Positions 6,112 through 57,767 of a stretch of DNA of 64,000 nt are shown here, in pieces. The translations under genes were made by a program, and so were the position numbers. The notes under the pieces are model-generated. The model was not told the origin of the DNA, searched no databases, and worked only from the letters and a program-made list of their open reading frames with translations. The stretch lies in IMG/VR virus record IMGVR_UViG_3300021255_002126, positions 4,253 through 68,252 of that record; one strand, 5' to 3'. Positions within the stretch are counted from its first letter, which is position 1, and every line of letters begins with the position of its first letter. The DNA is from a virus.

Positions 6112-6130
6112 TGCTCTTGATTTTTATGGT

Positions 6131-6964: not shown

Positions 6965-6990
6965 TGCTCTTCTTTTTTTGCGGTTAAACA

Positions 6991-8627: not shown

Positions 8628-8645
8628 TGCTCTAATCTTTAAAGG

Positions 8646-9005: not shown

Positions 9006-9023
9006 TGCTCTTCTATTTTAATG

Positions 9024-9130
9024 GTTTCTTATATTTCTACTGTAAAGGTAGTCATTTTTTGGCAATTTTCCAAACGTTTTTCAAAGTATTTTTCCTCGCA
9101 ACTTGCTGATTTTCAAATATTTAACTTTTG
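9024..9130 (-). promoter_or_regulatory. Early promoter repeat, copy 2
   Basis: TTGG-N7-CCAA palindrome, TACCTTTA (9043-9050), AAATATAAGAAAC leader. Confidence 0.8.
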
Positions 9131-33364: not shown

Positions 33365-34042
33365 TTAAATTGCCGTTGATACATACTTGATGGCCGAGTC
33401 ATTCTGTCGGAAAGCGAACTGACAGAGTGCATCCCCTACTTTGAATACTGTCCACTTGGTTATCTCCTCACCTACAGGAATGCCGCATGCAGATTTCCAA
33501 AAACTACCCGCCGTTCTTATGGTCTTTCCCTTCTTACCTCCGAGTGCCTTGCATACCTCAGCGAAAGTCTTCCATCCGAAGCCGTCAACGTTAACTAACA
33601 TCTTCGTGCTTATTTTACGTTCAGTGTCACTCTCCTGCTTGAAATACTCCTTGACAATGCAATAGCGGTTGAGCGCCTTGTTGCCCTTCTTCAGCAGTTC
33701 CTTGATTTCCTCGACATCGATAACGGCATCCAACTCTTCGTTACAGTCAAATTGGTATTCCGGTTCATCGACCTCCTTGGGTTCCTCAAGAATGTCCTCG
33801 ACCTTACCTACCTCATCATTGGTGATGGTCACCTCCTCGACAGGAGCAAGGTTCTCTTCTTGCTCGATGGCTTCCGTGGCGCCAGCCTTCTTGCGGTAGT
33901 GGCCGACCAGTGAGGAAAGGCTGCGCTTACCTGCTACGTTCTCGTACTCCTGGAACAAATCTTTGTTCAGTTCCATTGCGGTTGCAAACTCGTTGTTCTC
34001 AAAGTTAGCCTTGATGGCTGCTTTCAATTCTTCTTTCTTCAT
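33365..34042 (-). CDS. Hypothetical early protein
   Basis: AGAGCAATG start. Confidence 0.75.
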   Translation of the reverse strand: MKKEELKAAIKANFENNEFATAMELNKDLFQEYENVAGKRSLSSLVGHYRKKAGATEAIEQEENLAPVEEVTITNDEVGKVEDILEEPKEVDEPEYQFDCNEELDAVIDVEEIKELLKKGNKALNRYCIVKEYFKQESDTERKISTKMLVNVDGFGWKTFAEVCKALGGKKGKTIRTAGSFWKSACGIPVGEEITKWTVFKVGDALCQFAFRQNDSAIKYVSTAI

Positions 34043-34068
34043 TGCTCTAAATTTTTAAAAAGTTTTAC

Positions 34069-34338
34069 TTATAATAGTCTCCATATGTCATTGGCAACAT
34101 CGCTGCCGTATTTTATTGCGATGATGATGAGCATCCTTTCAGATGCCTCATGCCTTTCCTTGAACTCATCCGTCGTAATGCCGTCTCTGTTGACATACTC
34201 TTCGAAAAATTTGCTGTACTCCGGGTAGTCAAAGAAATCCGCTACCATCTTCAATGCCTCTGCGTGGCAGTTGTAACTTGTCTCTTTTTCAACCTTTCTT
34301 AAAAGGGTAGAAAACCGTTTCTTGTCTATCGTCTCCAT
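34069..34338 (-). CDS. Hypothetical early protein
   Basis: AGAGCAATG start; first gene after promoter repeat 3. Confidence 0.75.
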   Translation of the reverse strand: METIDKKRFSTLLRKVEKETSYNCHAEALKMVADFFDYPEYSKFFEEYVNRDGITTDEFKERHEASERMLIIIAIKYGSDVANDIWRLL

Positions 34339-34367
34339 TGCTCTCCTTGTTTAAACGTTAAAAATAA

Positions 34368-34474
34368 TGTTTCTTATATTACATTGTAAAGGTAGTCATT
34401 TTTTGGCAAATTACCAAGCGTTTTTCAAGTTATTATTTCTTCTAACAACTTGATTTTTATATATTTAACTTTTG
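34368..34474 (-). promoter_or_regulatory. Early promoter repeat, copy 3
   Basis: TTGG-N7-CCAA, TACCTTTA (34387-34394), ATATAAGAAACA leader. Confidence 0.8.
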
Positions 34475-37405: not shown

Positions 37406-38848
37406 TTATTCTGCCGACGCACCGCCAAAGATGTCTTGCACACGACTCTCCAACGAAGCATTTTGCTCATTTTGATATTCCTCGTAGGTTGCATCTGGGT
37501 CTTCAGATACACCCGCTTTTCTGATAGACTCCAAGTGACCTATGAGAGGTTTGTCACCATTTGCCTTCATCCATTTCTCTATCTCGTACTTCTCATCATT
37601 TTGAACGAATGGAGTAATGATATGCTCAACATCGATATTATCTATCTCCGATGCCCACTTTACATTCATCTTCTTCAAAAAGGCTTTAATTACATTACAC
37701 TCTCTTTCCAAGAACTCTATCCAAGCACCTGCCTCATCTCCTATCTTTAAGTGGGCGTCTGTAAACAAAGTTTGTCTTGCATCATATCCAATACTTCCCA
37801 AACCTTTTAAGTTGTCAAACGATACATCCGGCATTTGCGCTTGCATAAAGAACAACTTTATCAGCATGTCTATATGGTACTTTAGAGCCTCTACCGACTG
37901 TTGCCAAGAAACGTAAGACACGTCACCTCCGTTTGCCATTCTGAATGCCCTACGGGCATCACCTTTCGCTTCTTCTCCAATTATATCTCCCGAAATCTTT
38001 AACACTGGTGCCGAGTTGTAGGCTATCACATCACTATTACGAGACAAAGTGTACTCCATCTCTTCTCGCAGATAAGATAACCCATGATAAACGGGAGCAG
38101 GCCTCCACAAGTATACTCCTGGTATCTTCATGATGTTTATCTTCTCCCCGCTGACCTCTTCTCCGTCTTCCGAAGATGACACACTTATCTCCGACCAGCC
38201 ATCAGATGCCAAACTGTCTCGCTTCCATATATAATGCCTGTCTGCCGTGAAAGTCTCAAAGTATGTTACTGAGGTAGAACCTACTTTCTTCTCATATTCA
38301 AAGGACATTGCAAGCATATCATCCATTTCATCAATGAGAGGGTACAACTTATATCCCTCCATTGGCGAGTACGTCTTACACTTTAACTTATACTTGCTTG
38401 GAAAACCATACAAGGTATTATCTCTCTCCACAGTGTACCATATAGTAAAAATCTCACATGCGGCATAGTAAGCAAGTCCTCTTTTTAAATTAACCGAATC
38501 AATGCGTGCATGCTTGTATATAGATTCAATGGCATTCGCTATATCCTTACGGACATCCGTGTCAAGGTTAGAATACACTCTCTTTACAGGTAGAGAGAAT
38601 GTGTATTCGTTGTAACGATGCGAAAGCAATTTCTCCATGCCAACATAGATTCTGCTTGCTTTTTCAACAACTCCGTCAGATCGTTGCCTATCCTTACGGC
38701 CTATCATATCATGAACTATCTTATGATTCGTTGGCTCGTACTCTTTTAGCAAGGATGCCCAATCTGGCACCTCTACTGACTTTTTCTTTAACTCATTAAT
38801 AATAGTGCCGACGGAACCGGCATTGAAGATTTCTTTGATAGATAGCAT
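37406..38848 (-). CDS. Portal protein (SPP1 gp6-like)
   Basis: 480 aa, between terminase and MuF. Confidence 0.85.
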   Translation of the reverse strand: MLSIKEIFNAGSVGTIINELKKKSVEVPDWASLLKEYEPTNHKIVHDMIGRKDRQRSDGVVEKASRIYVGMEKLLSHRYNEYTFSLPVKRVYSNLDTDVRKDIANAIESIYKHARIDSVNLKRGLAYYAACEIFTIWYTVERDNTLYGFPSKYKLKCKTYSPMEGYKLYPLIDEMDDMLAMSFEYEKKVGSTSVTYFETFTADRHYIWKRDSLASDGWSEISVSSSEDGEEVSGEKINIMKIPGVYLWRPAPVYHGLSYLREEMEYTLSRNSDVIAYNSAPVLKISGDIIGEEAKGDARRAFRMANGGDVSYVSWQQSVEALKYHIDMLIKLFFMQAQMPDVSFDNLKGLGSIGYDARQTLFTDAHLKIGDEAGAWIEFLERECNVIKAFLKKMNVKWASEIDNIDVEHIITPFVQNDEKYEIEKWMKANGDKPLIGHLESIRKAGVSEDPDATYEEYQNEQNASLESRVQDIFGGASAE

Positions 38849-38871
38849 ACGCCCAAAATGTTATAACGCCG

Positions 38872-38903
38872 CAAATATACAAAAAATGCTTGAAAGTCAA
38901 GCA
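38872..38903 (-). promoter_or_regulatory. Promoter + TGCTT-N7-AAGCA operator (portal operon)
   Basis: TATATTTG at 38872-38879; TGCTTG-AAAGT-CAAGCA at 38887-38903. Confidence 0.75.
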
Positions 38904-38965
38904 CAAATCTTTAAAAAATGTGCGTGCCTCAAGCATTTTTTTGTACTTTTTTGCTAAATCTGCGT

Positions 38966-39253
38966 CTATTTACCTCTCATCTCTGCGTATGCCTGTGTGA
39001 ACTGAATCGACTTGCTTAACATGTCGATTATCTCCTTTTTCTTTCCTACAAAATATTTCACTCCGCTAAATCTAAACGGCACATAATGACCCTCCTTCCA
39101 TTGAAAGGTCTCTATATACCACTTGGAACCATAGTATCGAGTAATGCCGTTACATTCCTCCATGATTGACCTTCTGACGGCACTCAACTTGAATACTCCG
39201 CTGTCGCTGTATATGAGTATTCGTTTCCCTGTATTCTCACACACCTTGCTCAT
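38966..39253 (-). CDS. Hypothetical protein
   Basis: 95-aa ORF. Confidence 0.65.
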   Translation of the reverse strand: MSKVCENTGKRILIYSDSGVFKLSAVRRSIMEECNGITRYYGSKWYIETFQWKEGHYVPFRFSGVKYFVGKKKEIIDMLSKSIQFTQAYAEMRGK

Positions 39254-39256
39254 ATA

Positions 39257-39505
39257 CTAATCATCTATTTCATTTATCTCCGTATAGAACTCCGTAATGC
39301 CATACTCCTTTAGACGCTCGTCTGCGAAATTCCGAAGACCTTTTGCCGCATCTTCGTCATAACCGACTTCGTATCGACCTGACGAATACCAAACTCCGTT
39401 TCCTTGATATTCAAACTCCTCTCTCATTACCGAATCCCAATTAAGGTGGTAATTCGCAAGAGTCTCTTGCTCTGCCATGATGTGAATTTCTACTTGTAGT
39501 CTCAT
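39257..39505 (-). CDS. Hypothetical acidic protein
   Basis: Start placed at MRLQVEI downstream of terminator. Confidence 0.6.
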   Translation of the reverse strand: MRLQVEIHIMAEQETLANYHLNWDSVMREEFEYQGNGVWYSSGRYEVGYDEDAAKGLRNFADERLKEYGITEFYTEINEIDD

Positions 39506-39530
39506 ATCTTTCTTGATTTTGGGGTTTCTG

Positions 39531-39565
39531 AAAAACCTATGCCTATCTTCGCAGACCAGCATAGG
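39531..39565 (-). terminator. Intrinsic terminator with GCGA tetraloop
   Basis: CCTATGC-TGG-TCT-GCGA-AGA-TAG-GCATAGG-TTTTT. Confidence 0.8.
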
Positions 39566-39592
39566 GGTTCTTCATCTATTGAAGAGCAATAA

Positions 39593-39937
39593 TTATCTTC
39601 GATTACTATCTTTTGGTCGGACCAACTCACTTATACTTCTCTTCTCCGTCTGATGCGGTTTCTCCAGTTGGTCGCAAATAGCAACTCTTCTACCTGCTCT
39701 AATCAGCTTCGGTAGATAAGCGTCAAGCGCATGATGAGGGAATCCTACAACTTTAATGTCGTTGCTTTCCGTCTCGTGATACATTCTTACCGTGACACCT
39801 AAAATCTTTCCACAATCCTCGGCATCATCATCGTATGCCTCATAGAAGTCTCCGCATCGTAGCAACAAAAGAGCATCTGGATGTTTCGACTTGAAATCGT
39901 CGTACTGTTTTCTAATCACCGTTGTCATAATAGTCAC
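39593..39937 (-). CDS. Stand-alone MutS domain I protein
   Basis: QYDDFKSKHPDALLLLRCGDFYE...GFPHHALDAYL.KLI.AG.RVAICDQ. Confidence 0.9.
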   Translation of the reverse strand: MTIMTTVIRKQYDDFKSKHPDALLLLRCGDFYEAYDDDAEDCGKILGVTVRMYHETESNDIKVVGFPHHALDAYLPKLIRAGRRVAICDQLEKPHQTEKRSISELVRPKDSNRR

Positions 39938-39944
39938 TTTTTGA

Positions 39945-40278
39945 TTTTACAACAATCTCCGAAGAGAGGTGTTGACCTGTTATCGCCTCAGTAGTGTTGT
40001 TCACATGTTGCGCCTCACGAGGTATTTTCTGCCTATTTCGCTCTGGCGGTTTCTTATCCCATTTTCCTATCGGGCACGTTGTAGTGTGCTAACATTCTTG
40101 ATTTTTGGCACGTCTCGCCCTTGCAGTATGGTCGCTCGTTCACCTCCTCATCTCATGTCACTTTTTTCCTGTAGGGGTGGCATCCGCTGGGATTGAAGTC
40201 TATACCCTGTTAACTATAGTCCTTTGCGCCCACAGGGGTTCCAATGTCTCCGTTTTTCCCTTTCGGCTGTGGGCAATA
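39945..40278 (-). ncRNA. Candidate structured ncRNA (~330 nt)
   Basis: No minus-strand ORF in track; GCCCACAG/CTGTGGGC stem, CC-GAAA-GG, TCTC-TTCG-GAGA, CCT-CGTG-AGG hairpins. Confidence 0.5.
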
Positions 40279-40281
40279 TCA

Positions 40282-40671
40282 TTATTCCATCTTCGTAAAT
40301 ACGCTATCTACAAAGTCCAACTGGGTGTCGAAACTTTTCCAGTATCTCTTACAAGTACCCATCATTTCTTTCTTATGCTCCTTAATGATGTTCCATACCG
40401 TGTCTTCTTCCCATCCATCTACCATAGGAAAGTCCTCTATCGACCTAATCTTGTTCTTCTTTTCCTTTGGGAGGTAACTGCGAAGATAGCGCAACATGTA
40501 GTGCATGATGTCCAAGTTCTTATCCGTACCTTCAAAGATTCCGAAAATCACTGTGTTCATTCCGTTGGTCGTGATAGTCTGTCCTTCTTCCCAATCAAAA
40601 TGGTGTTCACGCAAACCTATTACCTGTTGTTCTTCGTTGTAATAGACCAAAAATCTTTTTTCTGCTTTCAT
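40282..40671 (-). CDS. Hypothetical early protein
   Basis: AGAGCAATG start. Confidence 0.75.
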   Translation of the reverse strand: MKAEKRFLVYYNEEQQVIGLREHHFDWEEGQTITTNGMNTVIFGIFEGTDKNLDIMHYMLRYLRSYLPKEKKNKIRSIEDFPMVDGWEEDTVWNIIKEHKKEMMGTCKRYWKSFDTQLDFVDSVFTKME

Positions 40672-40717
40672 TGCTCTTACTTTTTTGATGAATAACTATG
40701 TTTCTTATAACTCTTGC

Positions 40718-41023
40718 TTAGATTCTTTCAAAGACTTCTTTTCCTCTGCTGATTCTATAACCTGCGAACTTTTCTCCGTCGAATAGTTCTTTGGCTGCAT
40801 CGTAGGCATATATTTTGTAGTATGCCGAACCATAAACACACTCTTGCTCTTCCTTTTCGTTTCCAGAAAAATCGAACTTCTTTCGACTTCCGTAGTAGTC
40901 CACAAAGACTGATGCCTTGGTCACCTTTACTACGTCTACTACTTTAATCGTGCAATAATTTCCCAACTGAGGGTTGTGACGGAACATTGCCATAATTACT
41001 TGCTTTGTCTCTTTTGTTTTCAT
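40718..41023 (-). CDS. Hypothetical early protein
   Basis: AGAGCAATG start; first gene after promoter repeat 4. Confidence 0.75.
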   Translation of the reverse strand: MKTKETKQVIMAMFRHNPQLGNYCTIKVVDVVKVTKASVFVDYYGSRKKFDFSGNEKEEQECVYGSAYYKIYAYDAAKELFDGEKFAGYRISRGKEVFERI

Positions 41024-41052
41024 TGCTCTTCTACTTTAAACGTTAATAATGA

Positions 41053-41158
41053 TGTTTCTTATATTTACATGTAAAGATACTCATTTTTTGGCAATTTACC
41101 AAAAGTTTTTCTTCTAAATATTTCTGTAACTTCTTGATTTTCAAATAGTTTAACTTTT
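41053..41158 (-). promoter_or_regulatory. Early promoter repeat, copy 4
   Basis: TTGG-N7-CCAA, TATCTTTA (41072-41079), AAATATAAGAAACA leader. Confidence 0.8.
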
Positions 41159-41194
41159 ACGTGCTTTTGGTTGTGAAGCCTTTTTCACAACCAC

Positions 41195-41275
41195 AAAAAA
41201 GCCAGTCCTTAATCTCACGACTTGGACTGGCAAGAGCAATGAAGACTGCAGAATGCAGCCTCATATAAGAAACAC
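41195..41275 (-). ncRNA. Putative trans-acting antisense sRNA with two seed regions
   Basis: Promoter TTTG-N19-TAACTTTG (41278-41308); GUGUUUCUUAUAUGA-GGCUGCA-UUC-UGCAGUC-UUCAUUGCUCUU then terminator GCCAGUCC..GUGA..GGACUGGC-UUUUUU. Confidence 0.8.
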
Positions 41276-41312
41276 GGCAAAGTTAAGCAAAAAATTTCAT
41301 TCCACAAAAATA

Positions 41313-42824
41313 TTAAAGGAAATCTTTGAACAATTCACTTTCCTGTATTATCTCATAATCTCTTGGATAGAATGTGTTTGCCAATGCGTCGAAGTAGTCC
41401 GGCGACCTACCGAGACGTTTCTTTATATCTTCTTTCGATTCCATTATGACATCACCGCTGCTACTAAATTTCCAATGTATATCAGTGCATTCTTGCATGA
41501 GCATATCATTAGGCGGCAATGCTGGTTGGAAGCCATTTTTCGGGTTTAACCAATCTCTAACAGCCCAATACAAGTATGCTCTCATATTTGCAAACGTATA
41601 GACCTCCGTCACATCGTGAAGATTTCTTGTCCCCTCTGAGAACTTGCACGAATAAGCATTCTGGTAATTCAATTCTCTTAGTCGAGAGAAAACACCCGCA
41701 CCCTCTCCGATGGTATCTATAAATGCCTTGGCTCCTCTTTTCTTTAGGTAGGGGATAGTCATGCCTGCAACGTGCATGTGGTCTGCTACTCCTGCCGAAC
41801 TGTGAACCTCGAACTTCTCTACATAATTCCCATATCTTGGACAAAGAACCGAAGAGTCTCTTCCCATGCCCGCAACATCGACACCGAGACGGCATTTCTT
41901 CTTGGACTCAAACCCTTCTTCCCGTAGTTCTTTCCACCTTTCGTTGGCAATCTCTACCCATTCGTATGGTATGAGGACATCTTCTGACACTTTCGGGAAC
42001 ATTCCAAGCACCTTAACACGGAAAAGGTCGTTCGGACGATACCATTGACCTTCCCATTCAAAATCCCCCTCTCCATCATTCACCTCTTCCTTTCTTATGC
42101 CAACGCACCAATTCTCTACCTTGTCCTTTACCCACTCATAGTCAACTTGACCAGGAATTACATTCTTCTTACTTACTACATTCTCTGCAAATAGAGAGTT
42201 TAGTCTGAATCTCTTAAAACGAGACGACTTCATTGCTTTCGCAGCATAACCTGTAGTGATGTTGGGGTTAAACACAATCAACAATCGTGAGTTGCCCTGC
42301 AAGTTACCTTCAATAGCATTATATATCGTTTCCGAGATACCCGACGCCTCCGTTACAACAAACATCGTATTAACGGCATGGAAGCCAGACCATGCCTCCG
42401 TATTGTCCGCACTTGACTTAAAACCCGTCAAGAACCACTCTTCATAATTTGTTCGTATATCATATCCAACCAGTCGGCCAGGAAGCACACCGGCTGCCTT
42501 GTATAAACGTCTTACCTCTGGAACCATGATATTCCTAACTTGTCTGTCTGTCGGCGCTGTCATGGCAATCTTTGTATTCTCTATCAATTTTCCATTCTTC
42601 CATCGTGGAGTGAGGTACATAAAGCACAAGCACGCAACAGCCGCAATATAGTCCTTGCCTCGAGCGGTACCCGAAGCAACGGCAACCATACGTTCATTTT
42701 GTACGGCACGCAAAATTGCCTTTTGTTCATCATCAAGACGAGCATGAAGTACCTGCTTGGCAAACAATGTCCAGTCCTTGCGCCATGCCCGCATCTTGTT
42801 TTTTCGACTTTCGACACTCATCAA
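41313..42824 (-). CDS. terL: Terminase large subunit
   Basis: SGTARGKD Walker A, VVTEASG Walker B, GVDVAGMGRDSS and SPDYFDAL nuclease motifs. Confidence 0.93.
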   Translation of the reverse strand: MMSVESRKNKMRAWRKDWTLFAKQVLHARLDDEQKAILRAVQNERMVAVASGTARGKDYIAAVACLCFMYLTPRWKNGKLIENTKIAMTAPTDRQVRNIMVPEVRRLYKAAGVLPGRLVGYDIRTNYEEWFLTGFKSSADNTEAWSGFHAVNTMFVVTEASGISETIYNAIEGNLQGNSRLLIVFNPNITTGYAAKAMKSSRFKRFRLNSLFAENVVSKKNVIPGQVDYEWVKDKVENWCVGIRKEEVNDGEGDFEWEGQWYRPNDLFRVKVLGMFPKVSEDVLIPYEWVEIANERWKELREEGFESKKKCRLGVDVAGMGRDSSVLCPRYGNYVEKFEVHSSAGVADHMHVAGMTIPYLKKRGAKAFIDTIGEGAGVFSRLRELNYQNAYSCKFSEGTRNLHDVTEVYTFANMRAYLYWAVRDWLNPKNGFQPALPPNDMLMQECTDIHWKFSSSGDVIMESKEDIKKRLGRSPDYFDALANTFYPRDYEIIQESELFKDFL

Positions 42825-43159
42825 TCATCATCTTCTGTATCTTGCATCAACTTCTCAAATTGATTGATATTGACATCGCTCTCCACTTTCTCTACATATC
42901 CTCGTTTCTTCCCTTTTGTCCTTAGAAAGAAAATCAATGCTTGTACGTCGTCATTATTGATATGCTCTACCAACTTGGACTCTGCGAAGTCAATGATTGC
43001 TTCTTCAGCGGCTTCAAGGCCTTCGGCGAGTTTTTTCTTTTTTTCTTTCCATTCATAGAAAGTCTTGCGAGAGATTCCAAGAGCAGTACATGTTGCCGTG
43101 ATGTTACAACCCTTCTTCTCATATATCTCTATAATATTCTCAATCGGTATATTCTTCAT
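42821..43159 (-). CDS. terS: Terminase small subunit
   Basis: HTH (NITATCTALGISRKTFYEW), IFFLRTKGKKRGY; overlaps terL. Confidence 0.85.
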   Translation of the reverse strand: MKNIPIENIIEIYEKKGCNITATCTALGISRKTFYEWKEKKKKLAEGLEAAEEAIIDFAESKLVEHINNDDVQALIFFLRTKGKKRGYVEKVESDVNINQFEKLMQDTEDDD

Positions 43160-44022
43160 TTCGTTGCTGATTTCAAAATGTTCATGATGGTGTCAACGTA
43201 GGAGATATTCTCCGTCAAAAGCAGGCACTTTGAGAAGTGCGCTGATGGTCCAAGACCGGGCAGCAGGTTCACGTCAATGAGATACACCTCACCATTCTCC
43301 GTGAAGCGGAAGTCTATCCTTGCATGGTGTCTGATACCGAGGAGGTCGAAAACATATTTACTCATGGCGCAAGCCTTCCTGCCTATCGAACCTTTCAAAG
43401 CATAGCAATATTCATTGTAGTCGAACTTGCCCTTGTGCGTCTGAATGGCACCCTTCGTCTCGCAGTCAACGGCAATAGCATGGGCACATACCCCATTGTT
43501 TTGTGGGTCGTAATAGCAGGCAACTGTCGCGTCATTTCCTTCTATGAAGTCCTCAATGACACTCTCGTAACCCAACTCCTGCAATCTCATAACCTGGAAC
43601 TTCACGTCTTCCTTGCTGTGGCAGATGTTGTATTCCGTTATGCCAAAACTCTCGCTGCCGAAGCGTGGCTTGACAAAATACGTATCTCCAGGCTGAAGAT
43701 GGTCAATGCTATATTGTCTCGGCACCTTGATTCCGTGCTCGCTCAAAAGTCTTGACAGTTCTGCCTTATCACTTGCCTGTTGATAGACCGAATAATGCTC
43801 TGCCGTAGTGGCCACACCCTTTGCCTCTATCGTCTCAATGAGAAACCTGCTCGCAGTACGAAGCAGAACTATGTCTTTCTCCCCAACGAAGTCGAGAGGG
43901 TCGTCCTCATCCACTACTGACAGTCTGATATTCTCCCTGCCTACAACCTCTCGGTAATACTGGAAAACAGGAGGGATATTGTAGTCCTCCATTTCCTTCT
44001 TGCTTACAATAGTCCATATCAT
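43156..44022 (-). CDS. ATP-grasp ligase (D-Ala-D-Ala-ligase-like)
   Basis: DK, FVKPRFGSESFGI, IEDFIEG, ARIDFR, LIDVNLLPGL. Confidence 0.88.
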   Translation of the reverse strand: MIWTIVSKKEMEDYNIPPVFQYYREVVGRENIRLSVVDEDDPLDFVGEKDIVLLRTASRFLIETIEAKGVATTAEHYSVYQQASDKAELSRLLSEHGIKVPRQYSIDHLQPGDTYFVKPRFGSESFGITEYNICHSKEDVKFQVMRLQELGYESVIEDFIEGNDATVACYYDPQNNGVCAHAIAVDCETKGAIQTHKGKFDYNEYCYALKGSIGRKACAMSKYVFDLLGIRHHARIDFRFTENGEVYLIDVNLLPGLGPSAHFSKCLLLTENISYVDTIMNILKSATK

Positions 44023-44720
44023 GACTTATCCTCCTTTATCTCTTTAAGTCTTTCCTTTGCCAATTCCAACAATTTCGCAAACGTTATAGACGGAGACTTG
44101 ATGTTGAATTGGTTACCTATCTCTTGCTGCAATTTCAAAAGCAGCATTTCATTAGTCTGGTCAGCCAAGATGAGGGTATCACTTTTCTTTGCCTGTTCAC
44201 GAATATCACCATACAACTCATCGAGATTTTCAAACGAATTGGGGTAGAGGATAATCGTAAACACAAAGTTCTCCTTCAGCGCATAAATGCTAATACCATC
44301 CGTGCTGACAGGACTTACCTCATCGATGTTGATATGAGCGAATTTCTTGAAATCTACCGACTGGATTTGCTCGAACAGTTTTTTCAATATACTCGTATTG
44401 TCTTGACCATGCAGCGAGTTGTGTGAGAGTTGGATAGCAATTATCTCATCCTTGCTCAACTCGCTTTCATCGCACCAAAGAATTCCAATCATACTGTAGT
44501 GGAGTTTTTTGCATGCTCTGAGTCTGTGATGCCCACTTATCATCACATACCTTCCGTTGGCTTTCTTATAGCAACATGGTACGCTACTAAGTCCAGACTT
44601 GCCAATGTTATCACACAGCGCTGCAAAGTCCTCGCCTGTCATTTCATTGGCATTCATTTCTGCTTCGTCGATTAGGTTGATGTCAACCTTGTCGTACTTC
44701 CATCTTTCTTCATTTCCCAT
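44019..44720 (-). CDS. ParB/Sulfiredoxin-domain protein
   Basis: NANEM...L.DNI..SG...YVMISGHHRLRA...QLSHNSLHG. Confidence 0.88.
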   Translation of the reverse strand: MGNEERWKYDKVDINLIDEAEMNANEMTGEDFAALCDNIGKSGLSSVPCCYKKANGRYVMISGHHRLRACKKLHYSMIGILWCDESELSKDEIIAIQLSHNSLHGQDNTSILKKLFEQIQSVDFKKFAHINIDEVSPVSTDGISIYALKENFVFTIILYPNSFENLDELYGDIREQAKKSDTLILADQTNEMLLLKLQQEIGNQFNIKSPSITFAKLLELAKERLKEIKEDKS

Positions 44721-46785
44721 TCTTCAACATTTTACTATATTTTTCAATAACTTCTTTATTCGTGGCATATTTACCTAACTCTCCTTCATAAGCGAGATAC
44801 GATGACGTACAATGCTCTTTCACCTTTGTATAGACACCACGATACTTCATGCTGACAGGTTTGTGCGTATAGGCACATGAGATAACTCTCTCACAAAGTT
44901 TGTGCATACGTCTGCTTAGTTCTTTTTGAACGCCCGCTGTCTGCAAACAAAGCAATATCAGTTTGGCAAGTCTCGGTACGTTATTGTTCGTACAAAAGTC
45001 TGTCAGTTGGAACAAATCATATCCCTTGTGTTGAGGTAGGGTGAAACCGAATCCACCAAGCGTGTACTTCTCATACATTACCACAAAAGCATAAGTACAA
45101 TGCGACACAGTGTCTACTTTTCGGATATACTTCTTTTGCAAGGCATAAAGGTAACCAGAGTCCACTCTCGCTATCTTCAGACTATTCGGGTTGTCGATAA
45201 CCAAATCATCTGGTGGTACAATCTCATTAACCTCTATATGATTCGACTTGTATGATGTGTTGACTTGGTTGCTTTCACACTTCTTGTTGCAATACAAAAA
45301 ACGTCCAGCCGACCATCTCTCTCCCCTTGAAGAGTTCCACATTGCCAACTTGTGCATGTTCCTCAAATACGGACTATTACTGAAATAGTAGAAGTACGAG
45401 TCTTTTGGCAACGTCTCTATTATCTCATAGTAATCGTTGCGCTTAACGTCGAACTCCATTTCCAAGTCACTGTTCTCAGAAATCAACTTGAACGTGCGCT
45501 TCTGAGTCTTATCCTTGCCGTAATTGAAGAATATAACCTTCTCTTTCGGTATCGCGTCTTGCAAGGTGCCAACATGATACTCGCAAGTTGTAAGCAGGTT
45601 CAGCAATCGTTCGCTGCCCTTCTCGGTTTTCTCGATGGACTCTTTGGCACGCATCTTTACCGATTCTATAACTGCTTCATTCCTCTTTGAGTCGCTCATG
45701 GAGAACTTCTGCAACTTTTCGGCATACAATGCTAAAGCAAGTTGCCGAGATGGGGTGTCATTATTAAAGTCTTCCAACCACGATAACTTGTCCCTGTATT
45801 TGAGAGTAATCTTTCCGTTTGCTACCATCCACAGCAAATGGCAATACGGATCTTGCGCATAGATAGACAACTTCACCTTGTCCATGAAGAACAACTCGTA
45901 ATAATACATAAAACCATTCACTATGCAAAGTTTCTTATGGCCATGACTCTTGACCGCTTCCCACAATGCAGACGCTTGCTTCGAGTTATAGGGCAGAGAT
46001 TTGGTCTGGAACGTCTCTATTGCACTATAGGGGTTTCCTTGATAAAGGAGCGGCACTAACTCCGCTGGTGTGCCGTATTTGAGGTCTATAATCCTCAAAA
46101 ATTGCTCATAAGAAGATATGGATTTAAAGTCCTCCAATTCATGGTTTACCGCATAATAAAACATCCTGTATGTTGACAGAACGCAATTCATGGCTTCGTT
46201 ATAGTCGTTCGTACCATGATATGTTCTAAACTCAATCGTCTTGGTCTTGAAATATGCCGAGATATTTACCGCATGCCTTATAAACCCTTTCTTGGACTGA
46301 TTCGTGAACAACTTGTTAATATCCTCATACGTCTCGGCCTCGAGCAAACCATTGTAATACTTTTCCGTAGGAAGCGGCTGACAATTAAAGATGAGTTCAT
46401 CCCAATCAGACAACTTCGTGTATCTCTTGAAATACGGATAGCACAAGTAGAAAAACAACCATACCTTTTTTATCTGCTCTACCGTCAGATCTCCTGCGTA
46501 TATATGAACATGAGTGTAGGTAGTCCATTTTATCAAACCTCCAGCATCTCTCATTGAGTCATATACCGCTTTAAGGTTTTTTCTATCTTTTGCACTATAA
46601 ACACATAAGGGAGGGGTGTTTACTTCCCCTCCGAAACGCTTATTACACGAACCATCGGTATTTACAATCTCTTCATCTTTGCTCCATGAGAATCCATCCG
46701 GCAGACTAACCAACTGCCTGTCGAGGTTGCACATTTCAATCTCGATACCAAAGGTTCTCGTTTTCAAATCTTCTCCTATTTTCAT
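44710..46785 (-). CDS. Amidoligase (COOH-NH2 ligase) fused to degenerate methyltransferase-like and GNAT-like domains
   Basis: TFGIEIE, EVNTPPL, HVHI, TIEFR amidoligase motifs; C-terminal TDF...RLAKLIL...AYTHKPVSMKYRG (domain names for middle and C-terminus are less certain). Confidence 0.8.
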   Translation of the reverse strand: MKIGEDLKTRTFGIEIEMCNLDRQLVSLPDGFSWSKDEEIVNTDGSCNKRFGGEVNTPPLCVYSAKDRKNLKAVYDSMRDAGGLIKWTTYTHVHIYAGDLTVEQIKKVWLFFYLCYPYFKRYTKLSDWDELIFNCQPLPTEKYYNGLLEAETYEDINKLFTNQSKKGFIRHAVNISAYFKTKTIEFRTYHGTNDYNEAMNCVLSTYRMFYYAVNHELEDFKSISSYEQFLRIIDLKYGTPAELVPLLYQGNPYSAIETFQTKSLPYNSKQASALWEAVKSHGHKKLCIVNGFMYYYELFFMDKVKLSIYAQDPYCHLLWMVANGKITLKYRDKLSWLEDFNNDTPSRQLALALYAEKLQKFSMSDSKRNEAVIESVKMRAKESIEKTEKGSERLLNLLTTCEYHVGTLQDAIPKEKVIFFNYGKDKTQKRTFKLISENSDLEMEFDVKRNDYYEIIETLPKDSYFYYFSNSPYLRNMHKLAMWNSSRGERWSAGRFLYCNKKCESNQVNTSYKSNHIEVNEIVPPDDLVIDNPNSLKIARVDSGYLYALQKKYIRKVDTVSHCTYAFVVMYEKYTLGGFGFTLPQHKGYDLFQLTDFCTNNNVPRLAKLILLCLQTAGVQKELSRRMHKLCERVISCAYTHKPVSMKYRGVYTKVKEHCTSSYLAYEGELGKYATNKEVIEKYSKMLKNGK

Positions 46786-47886: not shown

Positions 47887-47960
47887 TTGCGGAAGTGGGA
47901 CTCGAACCACACGACCTCTACGTTATGAGCGTAGCGAGCTGCCTACTGCTCCATTCCGCT
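47887..47960 (-). tRNA. tRNA-Met(CAU), partly initiator-like
   Basis: AGCGGAA/TTCCGCA with 1:72 mismatch, GAGC/GCTC D stem, CTACG-CTCATAA-CGTAG, TTCGAGT T loop. Confidence 0.85.
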
Positions 47961-52743: not shown

Positions 52744-53442
52744 CTAAAATAACTCATCGTCTGTCTGCTCCTCTACCTGTTCCTTGATTGTCGCTATGAT
52801 TTCGGGAGTCAGCTCAAACTTCTTGTTCCACATGTCGTCTATGAACTGGCAGCGAGAGAGTATCGTCCTCACTCCCTCTGATACCATTCTCACCGTGAAG
52901 GCCTCAACGTTGTCGAATGGGTTGCTACGTTCCCCGAAGTTCATCTTCTCATACTCCAAATACTCTCCGGCTTCGTAGAACCACTCATTGAGATACCTAT
53001 GCGCTTCTGCCGTGGAGTAGGTGAACGTACCATCGCAACACATGCCCTCGGTCATGGTGATACCGAAATCGCAGGCATACACATCGTTGCCCTCATACTC
53101 CTCGATGTTCTCCAAGATGTAGTCCTTGCAGAAAGCGAAGAACTCAGGCACCTCTTCCTTGACATCTTCCTTGACCTCTTCCGATACGGGGTACAACTCA
53201 TCAACATCTATCCAATCGAATGTACGACCTTTCTCATACATCTGTGTAAACTCGTTGCCGTTGAGATACCAGCCTTTCAGCCCATCGGCTTGCACATACT
53301 GGCATACCCAACTATGAAGTTTCCCGTCTAACCCTCCGTACCCTTTCACAAAGTAGGAGTGTATCTGACGACCTGCAAGGTCTGGCACCTCGTCCGGCCA
53401 CTTGTGCCAAACGGCATTGGGGTTGTTCTTCTCAATCCTCAT
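52744..53442 (-). CDS. Acidic hypothetical protein
   Basis: Start placed at MRIEKNN. Confidence 0.65.
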   Translation of the reverse strand: MRIEKNNPNAVWHKWPDEVPDLAGRQIHSYFVKGYGGLDGKLHSWVCQYVQADGLKGWYLNGNEFTQMYEKGRTFDWIDVDELYPVSEEVKEDVKEEVPEFFAFCKDYILENIEEYEGNDVYACDFGITMTEGMCCDGTFTYSTAEAHRYLNEWFYEAGEYLEYEKMNFGERSNPFDNVEAFTVRMVSEGVRTILSRCQFIDDMWNKKFELTPEIIATIKEQVEEQTDDELF

Positions 53443-53851
53443 CTTCTTCCTCCTCTTCTTCAGTGTTATCTTCAACGTACTGCTTGAACTCCTTGATGAT
53501 GTCCTCATCAGACGTGTTCTCTGCAAACTCATAGTCGATGTAGCCATCTACCATATCCTCGTCGGCATCGGGGAACTCCTCCTCGATAACCTTTCGGGCA
53601 TGGTCGGCCCAATCATCATCATCTTGCTGAGTCAAGGCTTCATAGTTCCGATAGCCGAGCAAGTCTGCAATCGTGTCTCTCTCAAACCAAAGGAAATCAT
53701 TCAACTGAGTATCGGTGATGCCATCGGGGTACAACTCCTCGATGTGTTTTTCCAGCCTTTCACAATCGGAATGGCTCAAATCATTCATGGTGTCCTTTCC
53801 ACCTGACCATGCCTCAAAGTTCTCGAGGCTTGTTTCACAGATAATCTTCAT
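53432..53851 (-). CDS. Very acidic hypothetical protein
   Basis: FEAWSGG..T...TQLNDFLWFE motif; AGAGCAATG start. Confidence 0.75.
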   Translation of the reverse strand: MKIICETSLENFEAWSGGKDTMNDLSHSDCERLEKHIEELYPDGITDTQLNDFLWFERDTIADLLGYRNYEALTQQDDDDWADHARKVIEEEFPDADEDMVDGYIDYEFAENTSDEDIIKEFKQYVEDNTEEEEEEDED

Positions 53852-53900
53852 TGCTCTTACGTTTCTTATGGTGGGAGGGCGGTTACCCCTCCCGTTACCT

Positions 53901-54281
53901 TTACTTGTTCGCTTCCTTTATTAGCCAATCGATTTCGGCATCAGTCAGCGGATAATCTTTCTCTCTCTTGAAATTGATGATGAACAACTGCCCGACAGCG
54001 TTAATCAAGCGGTCGTACATTTGATTTGGTATCTCTCCGTCAAAGTCAACAATCAGACCCCTTACGAAGTTCTTCTTATCCTCCTGTGCTTTCTCCTTGG
54101 CCTCCTTGACATGCTGCTCGAAAACGGATGCCTTCTGATAGAACCGACAACAATATTCTATACCGAAGTCGTTTGCGATGTTATGGCACATCTGGTCGAT
54201 GTCATGACTCCCGAAAAAGTCTGCGAAATACGTGTCACCTTTAAGGGATTGCAAAATCTCGATTTCTTGTTTCTTATCCAT
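53901..54281 (-). CDS. Hypothetical early protein
   Basis: AGAGCAATG start. Confidence 0.75.
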   Translation of the reverse strand: MDKKQEIEILQSLKGDTYFADFFGSHDIDQMCHNIANDFGIEYCCRFYQKASVFEQHVKEAKEKAQEDKKNFVRGLIVDFDGEIPNQMYDRLINAVGQLFIINFKREKDYPLTDAEIDWLIKEANK

Positions 54282-54298
54282 TGCTCTTCTCTCCTATA

Positions 54299-54535
54299 TT
54301 ATGGTAAAACATAAATAACGGTTGCACCTCTTCTTTGGGCCTCTTCCTTGGCTACCCTCACCGCTTCTTTGTAGGTCATGCTATTTGTGAAGAACGCCTT
54401 GGTTACATCTTCGTATCCTTCTTTGCTTCCGATGCTGAATGCCCAGACGCCACGACCTTTCGGCTCTTTTCCTAAATCGGAATAGTAAAGGGTCGTTTCT
54501 ACCTTGATTTCTTTCTTCAATACTTTCGTTTTCAT
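54299..54535 (-). CDS. Hypothetical early protein
   Basis: AGAGCAATG start; first gene after promoter repeat 5. Confidence 0.75.
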   Translation of the reverse strand: MKTKVLKKEIKVETTLYYSDLGKEPKGRGVWAFSIGSKEGYEDVTKAFFTNSMTYKEAVRVAKEEAQRRGATVIYVLP

Positions 54536-54564
54536 TGCTCTTCTTCTTTAAACGTTAATAATGA

Positions 54565-54671
54565 TGTTTCTTATATTTCTACTGTAAAGGTAGTCATTTT
54601 TTGGCAATTTTCCAAATTTTTCGAGCATTATTTTCGTTTCAAACGTCTGATTATCAAAGGTTTAACTTTTG
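54565..54671 (-). promoter_or_regulatory. Early promoter repeat, copy 5
   Basis: TTGG-N7-CCAA, TACCTTTA (54585-54592), AAATATAAGAAACA leader. Confidence 0.8.
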
Positions 54672-56258: not shown

Positions 56259-57086
56259 TTAATTAAACGTAATCAAACCAAATCTCTTTTGGAGAATCTT
56301 CATAGAGGTCTCTATATGACCTTCAAACGCCACCTCACATGGAGATGCAAACTTTTTCATATATTCTTTCAATGTCTCGTTTATCGGGTTTGTGACTGAC
56401 GGAACATAACTGTCCAACTTGCTTGCTATCAAATCATTCATATTGTTATTGTGAATTTCAAGCAAACGGAGGAACACCAAAGCAATACACGCATTAGTCT
56501 TCATAGACAAGTGACTGCAAGTCGGCCAGGTCTTCTTCAATTCGCCATTCATCGAATAGTAAAGCAGAACAAGGTCTCTCTGATTCTTTCTTATATACTC
56601 ATCAGCAGTCCTCTTTAACCTTTCCACATGATTGTTGTCTATATCTTTCTTGCATTCGCTTATGTACTTTTCACGAAGTTCACGAACCGATCTGCTCAAC
56701 TTTATCGTTTCGGATATTCTGTTTTCTGCTGCATACTTGATGACATCCTCAGCGTAACGCCATGCAACCTCTGTTATGATGAGTGGGACAAACGATATAT
56801 TCATATTCTCTTGGAACGTGAACGTTTCCAACATCGTCAACGTATCACTATGTATCTTCCGTTTAAACTGCGCTTCCGTAATAGGAGTTCGTGATACGTT
56901 GCTCATTCCGGACTTCTTATCGTTTTCTCGACAACCGAAATGCGTCTTTCGGTTCAGCACCTTCCTTCCTAACTTGTAGGCAATATTTAGGTACATATCC
57001 CCTTTACGAATAGGCTTGCCACATAGTTGGCAAACGTGTTCTTTCCTTGCCTTGGGAGTAGTTGTGTGCAAAATAACTTCTTTCAT
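56259..57086 (-). CDS. Zn-finger-containing hypothetical protein
   Basis: ARKEHVCQLCG..I..G..Y...H..C; AGAGCAATG start. Confidence 0.7.
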   Translation of the reverse strand: MKEVILHTTTPKARKEHVCQLCGKPIRKGDMYLNIAYKLGRKVLNRKTHFGCRENDKKSGMSNVSRTPITEAQFKRKIHSDTLTMLETFTFQENMNISFVPLIITEVAWRYAEDVIKYAAENRISETIKLSRSVRELREKYISECKKDIDNNHVERLKRTADEYIRKNQRDLVLLYYSMNGELKKTWPTCSHLSMKTNACIALVFLRLLEIHNNNMNDLIASKLDSYVPSVTNPINETLKEYMKKFASPCEVAFEGHIETSMKILQKRFGLITFN

Positions 57087-57107
57087 TGCTCTTATCTTTA
57101 ATGTTTC

Positions 57108-57767
57108 TTATCTTCGATACGTTTCATTGCCGAATATTATCTTTTCAAGCATCTCGTTGAATCTATCCGCAACCCTGTTGCCATACCTTTCCCTTATCTC
57201 CCTCGGCACAAGGTTGGTAGTGATAATTGTAAACAACTGAGCATTATATCTATACTCAAGCAAGTCTATGACAGGATTTAGCACGTTGCCGTATTCCAAC
57301 ACCTCAACAGCCTCCCTGCCCATATCCTCTATTGCTATCATTTCCGTCTGCTTCAATTTTTTAAACCGCTCCGTGTCCTTAGCATACCATGCTACTTCTT
57401 TGGCATCAACTATTTGTATTCCTTTACACTCGCCTTCTACTACACCCCTCTCAATCAAGTAGTTCAACAAGTTCTGGAAGGCATAGAGTAGGGTAGTCTT
57501 TCCGTTGCCACACATACCGCTGAACATCACGCCGAACTTACTCCCTCCATCAACAAGGAACGATGCAAACTTTTCTATGTTCGACATAGTATGCTCGTCT
57601 GGAACATAGGCTCTCTTCCTATATTCCACCTCTGCTTGATACGCCCCTGTAAGAAAATCCACCGCTTGCGCCTTTGTCATAGGCAACCTAAAACGTTCCT
57701 TCGTAATCTTTCGCCTCAGTAGCAGTGACTTCAGAACTTCTACGTTTATCTGTTTTGTTGCTTCCAT
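57108..57767 (-). CDS. DnaC/IstB-like AAA+ helicase loader
   Basis: GMCGNGKT, IEDMG.E, ITTNL, YG.RVADRF. Confidence 0.88.
   Translation of the reverse strand: MEATKQINVEVLKSLLLRRKITKERFRLPMTKAQAVDFLTGAYQAEVEYRKRAYVPDEHTMSNIEKFASFLVDGGSKFGVMFSGMCGNGKTTLLYAFQNLLNYLIERGVVEGECKGIQIVDAKEVAWYAKDTERFKKLKQTEMIAIEDMGREAVEVLEYGNVLNPVIDLLEYRYNAQLFTIITTNLVPREIRERYGNRVADRFNEMLEKIIFGNETYRR

Follow-up and report, generated by a model that had tools for sequence, protein, structure and literature searches.

The window analysed here is a 64,000-nucleotide stretch of viral DNA. On its minus strand, directly downstream of terL (terminase large subunit; phrog_2, E 9.4e-31, with no Pfam match of the product at E 0.001 or better), lie a promoter, a structured non-coding unit and an intrinsic terminator (Table 1). 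The promoter has the form TTTG-N19-TAACTTTG, and the letters of the Bacteroidetes consensus are reportedly those of Bayley et al. 2000. We placed the 5' end of the RNA from the position of the -7 box, which gives a predicted transcript that ends in the U run of the terminator. The fold of an 84-nt RNA reached -29.8 kcal/mol (z -4.01), and none of 200 shuffled sequences was as stable. In the predicted structure, the core of hairpin 1 is prolonged by AUGAGG/CUUCAU with one bulge, and the terminator consists of an 8-bp outer stem and an inner stem with a GUGA tetraloop cap. The minimum-energy fold pairs the CUUCAU of seed B inside hairpin 1 and leaves approximately 7-8 nt of this seed unpaired. 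An earlier, sequence-only reading of this DNA had described the promoter, the ~80-nt non-coding unit, the terminator and two seeds around a 7-bp hairpin; all of these features are present.

Table 1. Positions in the window of the RNA gene, its elements and the tagged gene starts.
Feature	Position	Strand	Remarks
terL	41313-42824	-	directly upstream of the RNA gene
-33 element TTTG	41305-41308	-	start of the predicted promoter
-7 box TAACTTTG	41278-41285	-	19-nt spacer between box and TTTG
Predicted small RNA, ~80 nt	41195-41274	-	5' end at 41274 set from the -7 box; 3' end at the U run
Seed A (anti-leader) UGUUUCUUAUAU	41263-41274	-	5' end of the predicted RNA
Hairpin 1	41241-41264	-	7-bp core GGCUGCA-UUC-UGCAGUC at 41244-41260
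Seed B (anti-tag) CUUCAUUGCUCUU	41232-41244	-	core CAUUGCUC at 41234-41241
Intrinsic terminator	41195-41231	-	stem GCCAGUCC...GGACUGGC 41201-41231, then U6 41195-41200
Nearest predicted target	41021-41064	-	leader AUAUAAGAAAC 41054-41064, tag AGAGCAAUG 41021-41029; 101-aa gene 40718-41023
Predicted target, leader motif and tag	9003-9034	-	leader motif 9024-9034, tag 9003-9011; gene 8646-9005
Predicted target, leader motif and tag	6962-7002	-	gene 6131-6964
Predicted target, leader motif and tag	34336-34379	-	gene 34069-34338
Predicted target, leader motif and tag	54533-54576	-	gene 54299-54535
Predicted target without promoter repeat	40669-40708	-	AUAAGAAAC 40700-40708, tag 40669-40677; gene 40282-40671
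Predicted target	53849-53869	-	AUAAGAAAC 53861-53869, tag 53849-53857; gene 53432-53851
Predicted target	57084-57111	-	AUAAGAAAC 57103-57111, tag 57084-57092; gene 56259-57086
Tag	2190-2198	-	start of gene 1971-2192
Tag	6109-6117	-	start of gene 5878-6111
Tag	8625-8633	-	start of gene 8139-8627
Tag	34040-34048	-	start of gene 33365-34042
Tag	54279-54287	-	start of gene 53901-54281
Shorter tag GAGCAAUG	1972-1979	-	xis-like ORF 1768-1974, 68 aa, ATG at 1974
Second, partial anti-tag AUUGCUCUU	39582-39590	-	3 nt past the MutS_I gene stop, before a GCGA-loop terminator 39531-39565

A scan for promoters and terminators missed the Bacteroidetes promoter and the real terminator because it used sigma-70 hexamers and loops of 3-8 nt, and it flagged hairpin 1 instead. 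The -7/-33 motif precedes 81% of primary transcription start sites in Bacteroides thetaiotaomicron, according to the available portion of one study (PMC7366714). Metatranscriptomes from four runs in two studies match parts of 38000-46000; the listed Logan contigs, a type of record that cannot show small RNAs, transcript ends or strand, leave 41204-41737 uncovered. The RNA gene is presumably transcribed, and sequence matches point to the separate promoter and intrinsic terminator expected of a trans-encoded base-pairing small RNA (sRNA).

A 35-codon ORF lies within the unit on the same strand (41160-41264). It is not conserved, as the inspected units of the L008 type have no ATG before the seed and the ATG of L003 is in a different frame. 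We also rejected a peptide on the opposite strand, where the ORFs are 4 to 62 aa long and end at different places, apart from a 200-aa read-through at L061. No conserved protein-coding frame was found on either strand of the unit.

Start-codon tags and leader motifs in the window

The sequence AGAGCAATG, referred to as the tag, has 15 matches in the window, whereas 100 shuffles averaged 0.97 and gave 6 at most. All matches are on the minus strand except one, which lies inside the RNA unit. Thirteen of the 14 minus-strand tags begin ORFs of 73-277 aa, and the remaining one, at 61230, opens 13 codons only. For the leader motif ATATAAGAAAC, where 0.01 matches would be expected, there are seven: five minus-strand copies in promoter repeats and two plus-strand copies, at 41263-41273 and 1334-1344. 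These repeats, which are nearly identical and approximately 75 nt long, precede five of the tagged genes, with the leader motif located right at the predicted transcription start. The 13 tagged genes are small, are scattered between modules and have no known function.

The two seeds mirror these motifs. Seed B is complementary to the tag at 13 gene starts encoded elsewhere, with 15 contiguous nt pairing perfectly at the gene starting at 9005. Seed A mirrors 11-12 nt of the leader in each of the five promoter repeats, and its complementarity to three further tag leaders spans 9-11 nt. The xis-like ORF carries the shorter GAGCAATGA; its N-terminus is helix-turn-helix-like, and xis is a candidate name. 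The complementarities to the five repeat leaders, the 13 tagged starts and xis had been claimed in the sequence-only reading and hold, as does the observation that the seeds stand in swapped order relative to an inverted copy of leader-then-tag. That reading had also spoken of an early regulon. The 13 gene starts do share the tag, but "early" was an assumption made for genes without known function.

Predicted duplex energies were less informative. Duplexes of seed B with tagged starts range from -20.8 to -27.7 kcal/mol, and several untagged sites score as well (e.g., -27.4 and -25.3 kcal/mol). Those of seed A with the leaders range from -14.5 to -16.2 kcal/mol and rank only 7th, 17th and 24th. 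Ranking by duplex energy is too noisy for picking targets. Bacteroidetes mRNAs lack Shine-Dalgarno sequences, and an A at -3 is a positive determinant, as stated in the accessible part of one report (PMC6847099). The nucleotide of the tag at -3 is C, so the tag is not simply an optimal start context.

Conservation of the unit downstream of terL

We kept 80 TerL-relative loci (72-87% amino acid identity), and the unit lies directly after terL in 64 of them. A pattern scan confirmed at least 69 loci with the unit, and the group includes prophages in Prevotella and Parabacteroides isolates; among these, the prophage loci of Prevotella vespertina A2879 (L170), Prevotella sp. KH2C16 (L172) and Parabacteroides faecalis AGMB00274 (L191) have tagged genes along with the unit. 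The 27 distinct units stem from 62 rather than 64 loci because a T-run rule excluded L031 and L033. A TAnnTTT[GA] box stands in the same place in all 27 (26 with a final G; L055 with a final A), and neither UUCAUUGCUC nor the GUGA terminator loop varies among the 27 aligned units. The 10 letters, the -7 box and the covarying stems are kept across TerL divergence down to 66-72% identity.

Hairpin 1 homologues form a helix of at least 7 bp anchored on the same G-C in 25 of the 27 distinct sequences. Stem positions 5-8 each show three to four pair types, with variants such as GAAAACAC/GUGUUUUC, GAAAUCGU/ACGAUUUC, GAAGCUGC/GCAGUUUC and GAAAAUGUCA/UGAUGUUUUC. In the terminator, 8 of 10 pairs change on both sides across homologues. 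RNAalifold on a plain MAFFT alignment recovered six terminator pairs alone because hairpin 1 was misaligned, and it was replaced by the anchored count and a model-based alignment (A2). In A2, which was fitted to the model's structure, 88.5% of cells are paired compared with 72.9% in shuffles, and the covariation score is 0.482 compared with 0.219 in shuffles and at most 0.131 in slid controls; none of 500 shuffles reached either value. Helix 1 is 98.5% paired in this alignment. Helix 2, comprising the two inner hairpin pairs, is only 45.9% paired because its register differs between clades. Covariation thus supports a conserved secondary structure, as measured in an alignment fitted to the model.

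A covariance model (R1) finds the unit at 41197-41267 (51.4 bits, E 1.2e-6) as its sole match in the window, a match by construction since the window sequence belonged to the seed alignment. R1 has one match each in 39 of 50 sources and none in nine loci without the unit. Twelve matches lie outside the seed alignment (L009, L025, L031, L061, L162, L166, L167, L170, L171, L172, L190 and L191). We define a type-1 family of terL-downstream anti-tag RNAs (A1, R1) by a position directly after terL, a -7 box, a G-C-closed hairpin before AUUGCUC and a GUGA-loop terminator, and the unit in the window has all four.

Seed A is less widespread. It holds its place solely in the window's clade; in L049 it is part of the hairpin loop, and in the L008 clade the letters that match it fall in the promoter spacer, outside the RNA. 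G026 and G035 have no leader targets for it. Second-segment targets outside the window's clade were rejected as mostly A-rich chance matches, with the exception of three leaders in G024.

Rfam 15 at gathering score gave a tRNA at 47887-47960 alone for the whole window and tRNAs alone for five relatives' loci with type-1, type-2 and type-3 units. ARAGORN found no tRNA in 1-2500. The Rfam C4 antisense RNA has no gathering-score match in the window and is absent from the nine weak matches (E <=10) on 41150-41330. There was no blastn match between 40600-43000 and public phage records, and an exact 21-mer of the unit had 0 matches in IMG/VR. On the comparative evidence, the unit is a real, conserved, structured RNA gene with its predicted promoter and terminator.

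Anti-tags beyond the terL-downstream unit

Enrichment of AGAGCAATG was found in all 46 relatives' records, with a reversed control giving 0-2 matches per record. The sequence-only reading had regarded relatives that keep the tag but lack the sRNA as evidence against it, and the unit after terL is indeed absent from 16 of the 80 TerL-relative loci. However, nine whole genomes without the terL unit by nhmmer all carry a different, three-hairpin promoter-terminator RNA with CAUUGCUC in an apical loop. This second scaffold (type 2; z -3.85, with four pairs changing on both sides) is placed elsewhere in the genome, not after terL. Its presence with the same anti-tag in genomes that lack the terL unit argues for pairing, not against it. 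Every whole genome examined (22 of 22) has at least one promoter-terminator unit holding CATTGCTC.

A 9-mer profile identified the anti-tag as the segment most complementary to the gene strand of its own genome in every unit profiled. Covariation between seed and tag among relatives had been proposed as a check. The core is invariant in all material examined, so the evidence is joint conservation rather than compensatory change in the pairing. The flanks do fit: seeds match the tags of their own genome for 3.45 nt past the 8-nt core and those of other genomes for 2.75 nt, a difference that none of 5000 label permutations reached; the effect, 0.7 nt, is small, and the genomes are related. Type-2 seeds match their own tags just 0.7-3.0 nt past the core. 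Two prophage loci, L169 (CATTGCTCG) and L178 (CATTGCTT), show changes in the flank or in the final letter of the core, and neither has informative tags within 4.4 kb.

The locus had been read as encoding one sRNA for the whole regulon, which is too simple. The window holds a second, partial anti-tag at 39582-39590, which resembles the unit at G001:30983, and some relatives carry two or three anti-tag units.

Modes of action and comparable systems

We favor, with moderate confidence, the interpretation that the locus encodes a trans-acting antisense RNA of ~80 nt that occludes the tagged start codons. The RNA would be transcribed from its own host-type (-33/-7) promoter, and the late terS-terL read-through transcript probably carries it as a 3' end too. 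The unpaired core AUUGCUCUU, between hairpin 1 and the terminator, would nucleate pairing with AAGAGCAAU, which occupies positions -7 to +2 of tagged mRNAs. Pairing may then spread to the 3' arm of hairpin 1, where CUUC/UUUUC stands opposite GAAG/GAAAA after the AU of the start codon, to form a duplex of ~12-15 bp across the start codon. Such a duplex would keep the 30S subunit, which in this phylum ignores Shine-Dalgarno sequences, off the start codon, and would lower the translation and probably the stability of the 13 accessory mRNAs, with a weaker effect on the xis-like gene. In the window's clade, the 5' end of the RNA would also contact AUAUAAGAAAC, more weakly, close to the 5' end of eight leaders. 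Here we infer transcription, pairing in the cell, repression as the direction of effect, and the timing. The proposal of a master-regulator sRNA thus stands for the conserved RNA gene, whose anti-tag mirrors a start-codon tag kept in 46 records, but not for seed A, which is clade-specific and gives weak predicted duplexes.

An unlikely alternative is that the RNA pairs with the tags but activates or stabilizes the mRNAs, e.g., by protecting them from nucleases, or that it acts mainly in cis on the terL read-through, which would contain the anti-tag along with the next gene's tag. Activation draws on the same comparative evidence for the RNA and its pairing, since that evidence does not say whether the effect is positive or negative. 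A duplex over the start codon normally prevents initiation, though, and GibS works that way in this phylum, as described in the available text of its report (PMC7366714). The tagged leaders are A/U-rich, and by eye, in the unfolded sequence, nothing obviously hides the AUG. For action in cis, the next gene starts at a tag or near-tag in 17 of 19 relatives with a unit right after terL (near-tags are AAGCAATG in L009 and L011, GAGTAATG in L049, and others in L043, L067 and L068), and the next tag in the window is 205 nt downstream of the unit. In contrast, L059 and L076 have no tag-like start within the 330 nt shown, and the RNA gene is tens of kilobases away from most targets. With type-2 units in other parts of their genomes, action in cis cannot be the whole account.

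It is considerably less probable that AGAGCAATG and ATAAGAAAC serve as protein-binding sites in the DNA, recognized in either orientation by a phage repressor, activator or recombination factor, and that the copy in the unit is an operator of the small transcription unit or of terL. On double-stranded DNA, an anti-tag is the same site inverted, and the leader motif sits right at the predicted transcription start of the promoter repeats. In the L008 clade, moreover, the anti-leader letters GTTTCTTTTAG match the clade's leaders CTAAAAGAAAC from within the promoter spacer, a place that allows no role except at the DNA level. Against this, 13 of the 14 tags coincide exactly with a start codon, in a single orientation and on the coding strand, which fits an RNA signal better than an operator, and nearly all tags per genome are in gene orientation. 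The inverted copy is unpaired or in a loop of a covarying RNA within a promoter-terminator frame, in two unrelated scaffolds, and the other inverted copies listed mostly lack such a frame.

Least probable of all, in a manner recalling the promoter-stem-loop cassettes of T4-type phages, the tags and leaders would be conserved borders of mobile promoter-leader cassettes that move accessory genes between phages, and the anti-tag unit would be a recombination by-product retained as the terminator of terL. In its favor, the tagged genes are small and scattered, five share the ~75-nt repeat, and the gene after the unit differs among relatives. A scar, however, would not have preserved a -7 box, covarying stems and 10 invariant letters down to TerL identities of 66-72%, nor would it turn up again as another scaffold that has the same 8-mer in a loop, and the swapped seed order is unlike an inverted cassette.

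If the antisense pairing works, a widespread group of gut Bacteroidota phages would control an accessory gene set post-transcriptionally with one short RNA and an exact start-codon tag. This would add one new RNA family, or two, and a clean natural model of how sRNAs act in a phylum that does without Shine-Dalgarno sequences and Hfq. No obvious Hfq or ProQ exists in Bacteroides, as stated in the accessible portion of one study (PMC7366714). The tag would also be a simple marker of which uncharacterized phage genes share one regulon, and the pair a ready orthogonal tag-and-RNA switch for Bacteroides engineering. More speculatively, and in our view doubtful, the start-codon tag may be a handle that a large group of temperate gut Bacteroidota phages has in common and that two or more unrelated RNA scaffolds recognize; as all members have the same 8-nt core, the RNA of a resident prophage would silence the tagged genes of incoming relatives. 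This would amount to an RNA-based network of cross-immunity or superinfection exclusion, along with an RNA counterpart of T4 RegA for the phage's own accessory genes.

By analogy, the unit would work like GibS or P1 c4, and it is a member of neither family. GibS of B. thetaiotaomicron represses two mRNAs through base pairing at the start region of each, and what is available of its report (PMC7366714) describes the same phylum, no use of Shine-Dalgarno sequences, an sRNA with its own promoter, a conserved single-stranded seed, start-codon-spanning pairing and repression of more than one mRNA; in the phage RNA, the pairing is predicted. The two seed regions of GibS (R1 and R2) touch one target. 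From the same text, GibS is a chromosomal RNA of 145 nt whose seed is extended and imperfect and which has two or three metabolic targets, whereas the phage RNA is ~80 nt long with an exact, dedicated 9-13-nt tag on 13 phage genes. No Rfam match indicates sequence or model similarity between the two. P1 c4 is a phage-encoded RNA of ~77-80 nt that blocks translation through short exposed segments and has links to the control of immunity and lysogeny (PMC8546580). The unit resembles it in size and in its short exposed pairing segments, with the translation block predicted here. Unlike the 13 dispersed tagged genes, the target of c4 is one downstream operon of its own transcript region, and the Rfam C4 model has no match to the unit even at E 10.

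The T4 translational repressor RegA and the endoribonuclease RegB are proteins that reduce the output of many early mRNAs through a short motif at the translation start. The likeness is one phage factor acting on many mRNAs through a motif at the translation start; here, the recognizer would be RNA and the motif is an exact tag. The claim that no described phage system has this design was too strong given the comparable GibS (as far as its available text goes; PMC7366714) and P1 c4 (PMC8546580), although a literature search of titles and abstract openings did not find the design itself. Another Bacteroides sRNA that uses two separate contact segments is MasB of B. thetaiotaomicron, which, in the accessible part of its report (PMC10994844), contacts its target via positions 41-50 and 69-74, with compensatory mutations. 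MasB differs in being chromosomal, with a predicted site ~40 nt downstream of the start codon in a single validated target.

A conserved predicted RNA gene downstream of terL

The window covers 64 kb of a 68,252-base IMG/VR virus record with an estimated completeness of 91%, and its minus strand carries nearly all genes. A sequence-only reading had placed a promoter, a short RNA with two seeds and a terminator after terL (41195-41308, minus strand) and had proposed that the RNA is a master regulator. Its coordinates and letters for this unit were correct on re-reading, and re-reading together with comparison confirmed the predicted promoter, RNA unit and terminator, and the mirror copies of a start-codon tag (seed B, the anti-tag) and of a promoter leader (seed A). 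The 84-nt unit stretch folds at -29.8 kcal/mol (z -4.01). In the predicted fold, part of seed B sits inside hairpin 1, which would constitute a toehold arrangement.

Features of the window and an example of the type-2 RNA
Feature	Position	Strand	Remarks
Tyrosine integrase	3023-4237	+	
SPP1-type portal	37406-38848	-	
terS-like gene	42821-43159		sub-threshold GP3_package match
Large terminase (terL)	41313-42824		phrog_2, E 9.4e-31; no Pfam match
Unit promoter	41308-41305 and 41285-41278	-	TTTG, 19 nt, then TAACTTTG
Seed A	41274-41263	-	UGUUUCUUAUAU
Hairpin 1	41260-41244	-	7 bp, UUC loop
Seed B	41244-41232	-	CUUCAUUGCUCUU
Terminator	41231-41201	-	8-bp stem enclosing short stem with GUGA tetraloop
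U6 run after terminator stem	41200-41195	-	
Promoter-leader repeats (five)	6964-7070, 9005-9110, 34338-34445, 41023-41130, 54535-54640	-	
Type-2 RNA example	L115:8473-8594 (locus of a relative; genome G032)	-	~120 nt, three hairpins, CAUUGCUC in apical loop

From 361 TerL relatives in IMG/VR, we kept the best 80 (72-87% identity). Exactly one unit with UCAUUGCUC follows terL on the gene strand in 64 of these 80 loci. At relative locus L061, an extra gene (4518-5090), which by its first residues resembles a homing-endonuclease-type insert, is inserted between terL and the unit. A TAnnTTT[GA] box precedes the hairpin by 5-20 nt in all 27 distinct units, and 25 have a helix of at least 7 bp anchored on the G-C before AUUGCUC. 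Across distinct units, UUCAUUGCUC, the G-A at the hairpin base and the GUGA loop are invariant; the hairpin keeps its position and its letters change in a compensatory way.

A covariance model of the unit (R1) yielded one match in each of 39 of 50 sources, a single match in the window, and none in nine terL loci without the unit. On the R1-based alignment, which was fitted to the structure and thereby favours it, paired cells reached 88.5% compared with 72.9% in shuffles, and the covariation score was 0.482 compared with 0.219 (0/500 shuffles reached the observed value in either case; slid controls, ≤0.131). Both partners vary in 13 of the 18 pairs, a count that is not significant alone because 41 of 500 shuffles reach it. 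Rfam 15 returned no match to the unit at the gathering score or at E up to 10. Among the homologous units compared, there was no conserved ORF on the opposite strand, and the 35-codon ORF P0002 (41160-41264, minus strand), which begins within the RNA and continues across the terminator, is not common to them.

A gapped pattern retrieved at least 112 IMG/VR loci, 69 of which were confirmed by nhmmer. Relatives found as prophages were labelled Bacteroidota at 41 of 43 loci, with two MAGs labelled Clostridia, and the unit or a variant was present in 11 of 42 prophage downstream regions viewed, three cultured isolates among them. Directly 3' of the terminator U run in the window lies a 9-bp hairpin, GGUUGUGAA-AAAGGC-UUCACAACC (41164-41194, minus strand), which lacks its own U run and has no counterpart among the relatives' terL-downstream sequences viewed.

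Start-codon tags and a second scaffold

Both motifs occur in the window beyond chance: the tag, AGAGCAATG, 15 times against 0.97 expected and the leader motif, ATATAAGAAAC, seven times against 0.01. Fourteen tag copies are on the gene strand, 13 of them at the starts of ORFs of 73-277 aa; the remaining copy lies on the plus strand and is the unit's own mirror copy. Of the 13 tagged proteins, three have matches among PHROGs of unknown function and none scores above a Pfam cut-off; the label "early" for these genes is an assumption, because their proteins have no assigned function. Five ATATAAGAAAC copies lie just 3' of a -7-like box in nearly identical promoter-leader repeats that have ~75 nt in common, including TTGCCAAAAAATGA(C/G)TA(C/T)CTTTACA, and 8 of the 13 tagged genes have the shorter AUAAGAAAC at a distance of 12-40 nt upstream of their tag. 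The box of the five repeats ends in A and that of the RNA gene in G; the A-ending form may differ in strength or depend on another factor.

All 46 records of relatives that we searched were enriched in the tag (reversed control, 0-2 matches per record), including records in which another gene directly follows terL. We compared 22 genomes, consisting of 21 relatives taken whole and the window's genome. The profile of the terL-downstream unit (type 1) gave one strong nhmmer match in 13 genomes and none in nine. Relatives that keep the tag and lack the RNA had been named in advance as evidence against the proposal. The tag is indeed kept without the type-1 unit, but each of the nine such whole genomes has one further unit, which bears CATTGCTC on the gene strand.

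This type-2 unit combines a TATATTTG-type box with two hairpins and a long terminator (fold z -3.85); one hairpin is GCAUGU-GAAGCU-ACAUGC, and the second is predicted to expose UCAUUGCUCU in its apical loop. The 14 type-2 sequences include nine distinct ones, and both partners vary in 4 of the 22 predicted pairs. The type-2 RNA has no match in Rfam and is absent from the window's genome; five genomes contain both types, and relative G001 contains a third variant. The same 8-mer is unpaired in at least two scaffolds not connected by nhmmer, as selection for tag pairing would lead one to expect.

Pairing and the likely mode of action

In an unbiased profile, complementary 9-mers on the gene strand of the same genome were most numerous for the anti-tag segment in every unit, again in line with selection for tag pairing. 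The seed-tag match extended 3.45 nt beyond the core within the same genome compared with 2.75 nt in other genomes (0/5000 permutations reached this), which is weak support because the genomes are related. The pairing core is invariant, so compensatory change in the RNA-RNA contact cannot be read from it, and energy scans did not separate tags from background. Sequence comparison gives good support to the unit as a conserved RNA gene and to the link between anti-tag and tag.

Most likely, a trans-acting antisense RNA would block initiation on the tagged mRNAs, covering them from position -7 to about +8. Repression of a regulon is the interpretation we favour, and we consider it somewhat probable. 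Bacteroidetes mRNAs have no Shine-Dalgarno sequence; their initiation is governed by the sequence and structure around the start codon and is favoured by A at -3 (PMC6847099), where the tag carries C. In the same phylum, the sRNA GibS represses by pairing over a start region (PMC7366714) and MasB pairs via two segments (PMC10994844). P1 c4 is the classical phage trans-acting RNA, repressing antirepressor synthesis (PMC8546580). The unit belongs to none of these families (Rfam 15, no match). In contrast to them, an exact tag here marks many start codons and would be read by interchangeable scaffolds, a design of which a full-text literature search, judged by titles and abstract beginnings, returned no description.

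One gene start each in relatives G032 (oriented 7162) and G008 (oriented 6423) is complementary to the type-2 RNA in two adjacent blocks. The first is GAAACUUAAAAAC in G032 and GAAACUUAAAAAU in G008, and AGAGCAAUG comes immediately after it in both. The blocks stand in normal antiparallel order with a 6-nt bulge in the type-2 RNA, and this gene may be a preferred target.

Seed A and other mirror copies

The proposed two-seed design held in part. Seed A complements the five promoter leaders of the window, plus three more, but is specific to one clade, that of the window, where it lies at the RNA 5' end. Among the relatives in this clade, G001-G003 have four to six leader matches; the G001 RNA reads UUUAAGAAAC in sense, a variant also found in some G001 leaders. 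G024 carries the seed A letters in a hairpin loop and has three leaders, whereas G026 and G035 have no leader targets. In the clade of locus L008, the letters belong to the promoter spacer and are not part of the RNA. The seed A letters may have a role at the DNA level.

ATATAAGAAAC has two mirror copies in the window, at 41263-41273 and 1334-1344. The latter, GUUUCUUAUAU (region 1300-1380, minus strand), is in a non-coding stretch and comes immediately behind a tRNA-like 3' end in CCA; a small hairpin (CCC-GAGA-GGG) follows, as does a U run. ARAGORN did not call a tRNA in this region, and its fold is unremarkable (z 0.19). As a mirror of the leader motif this copy is suggestive; with the integrase nearby, the region could be a host tRNA end copied in attP.

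A second, partial anti-tag, AUUGCUCUU (39582-39590, minus strand), begins 3 nt 3' of the stop codon of the MutS_I gene (39593-39937), and a GCGA-loop terminator comes next (region 39531-39590, minus strand; fold z -2.5). The region, which may be a 3'-UTR-derived anti-tag RNA, resembles the unit at G001:30983, where CAUUGCUC is complete.
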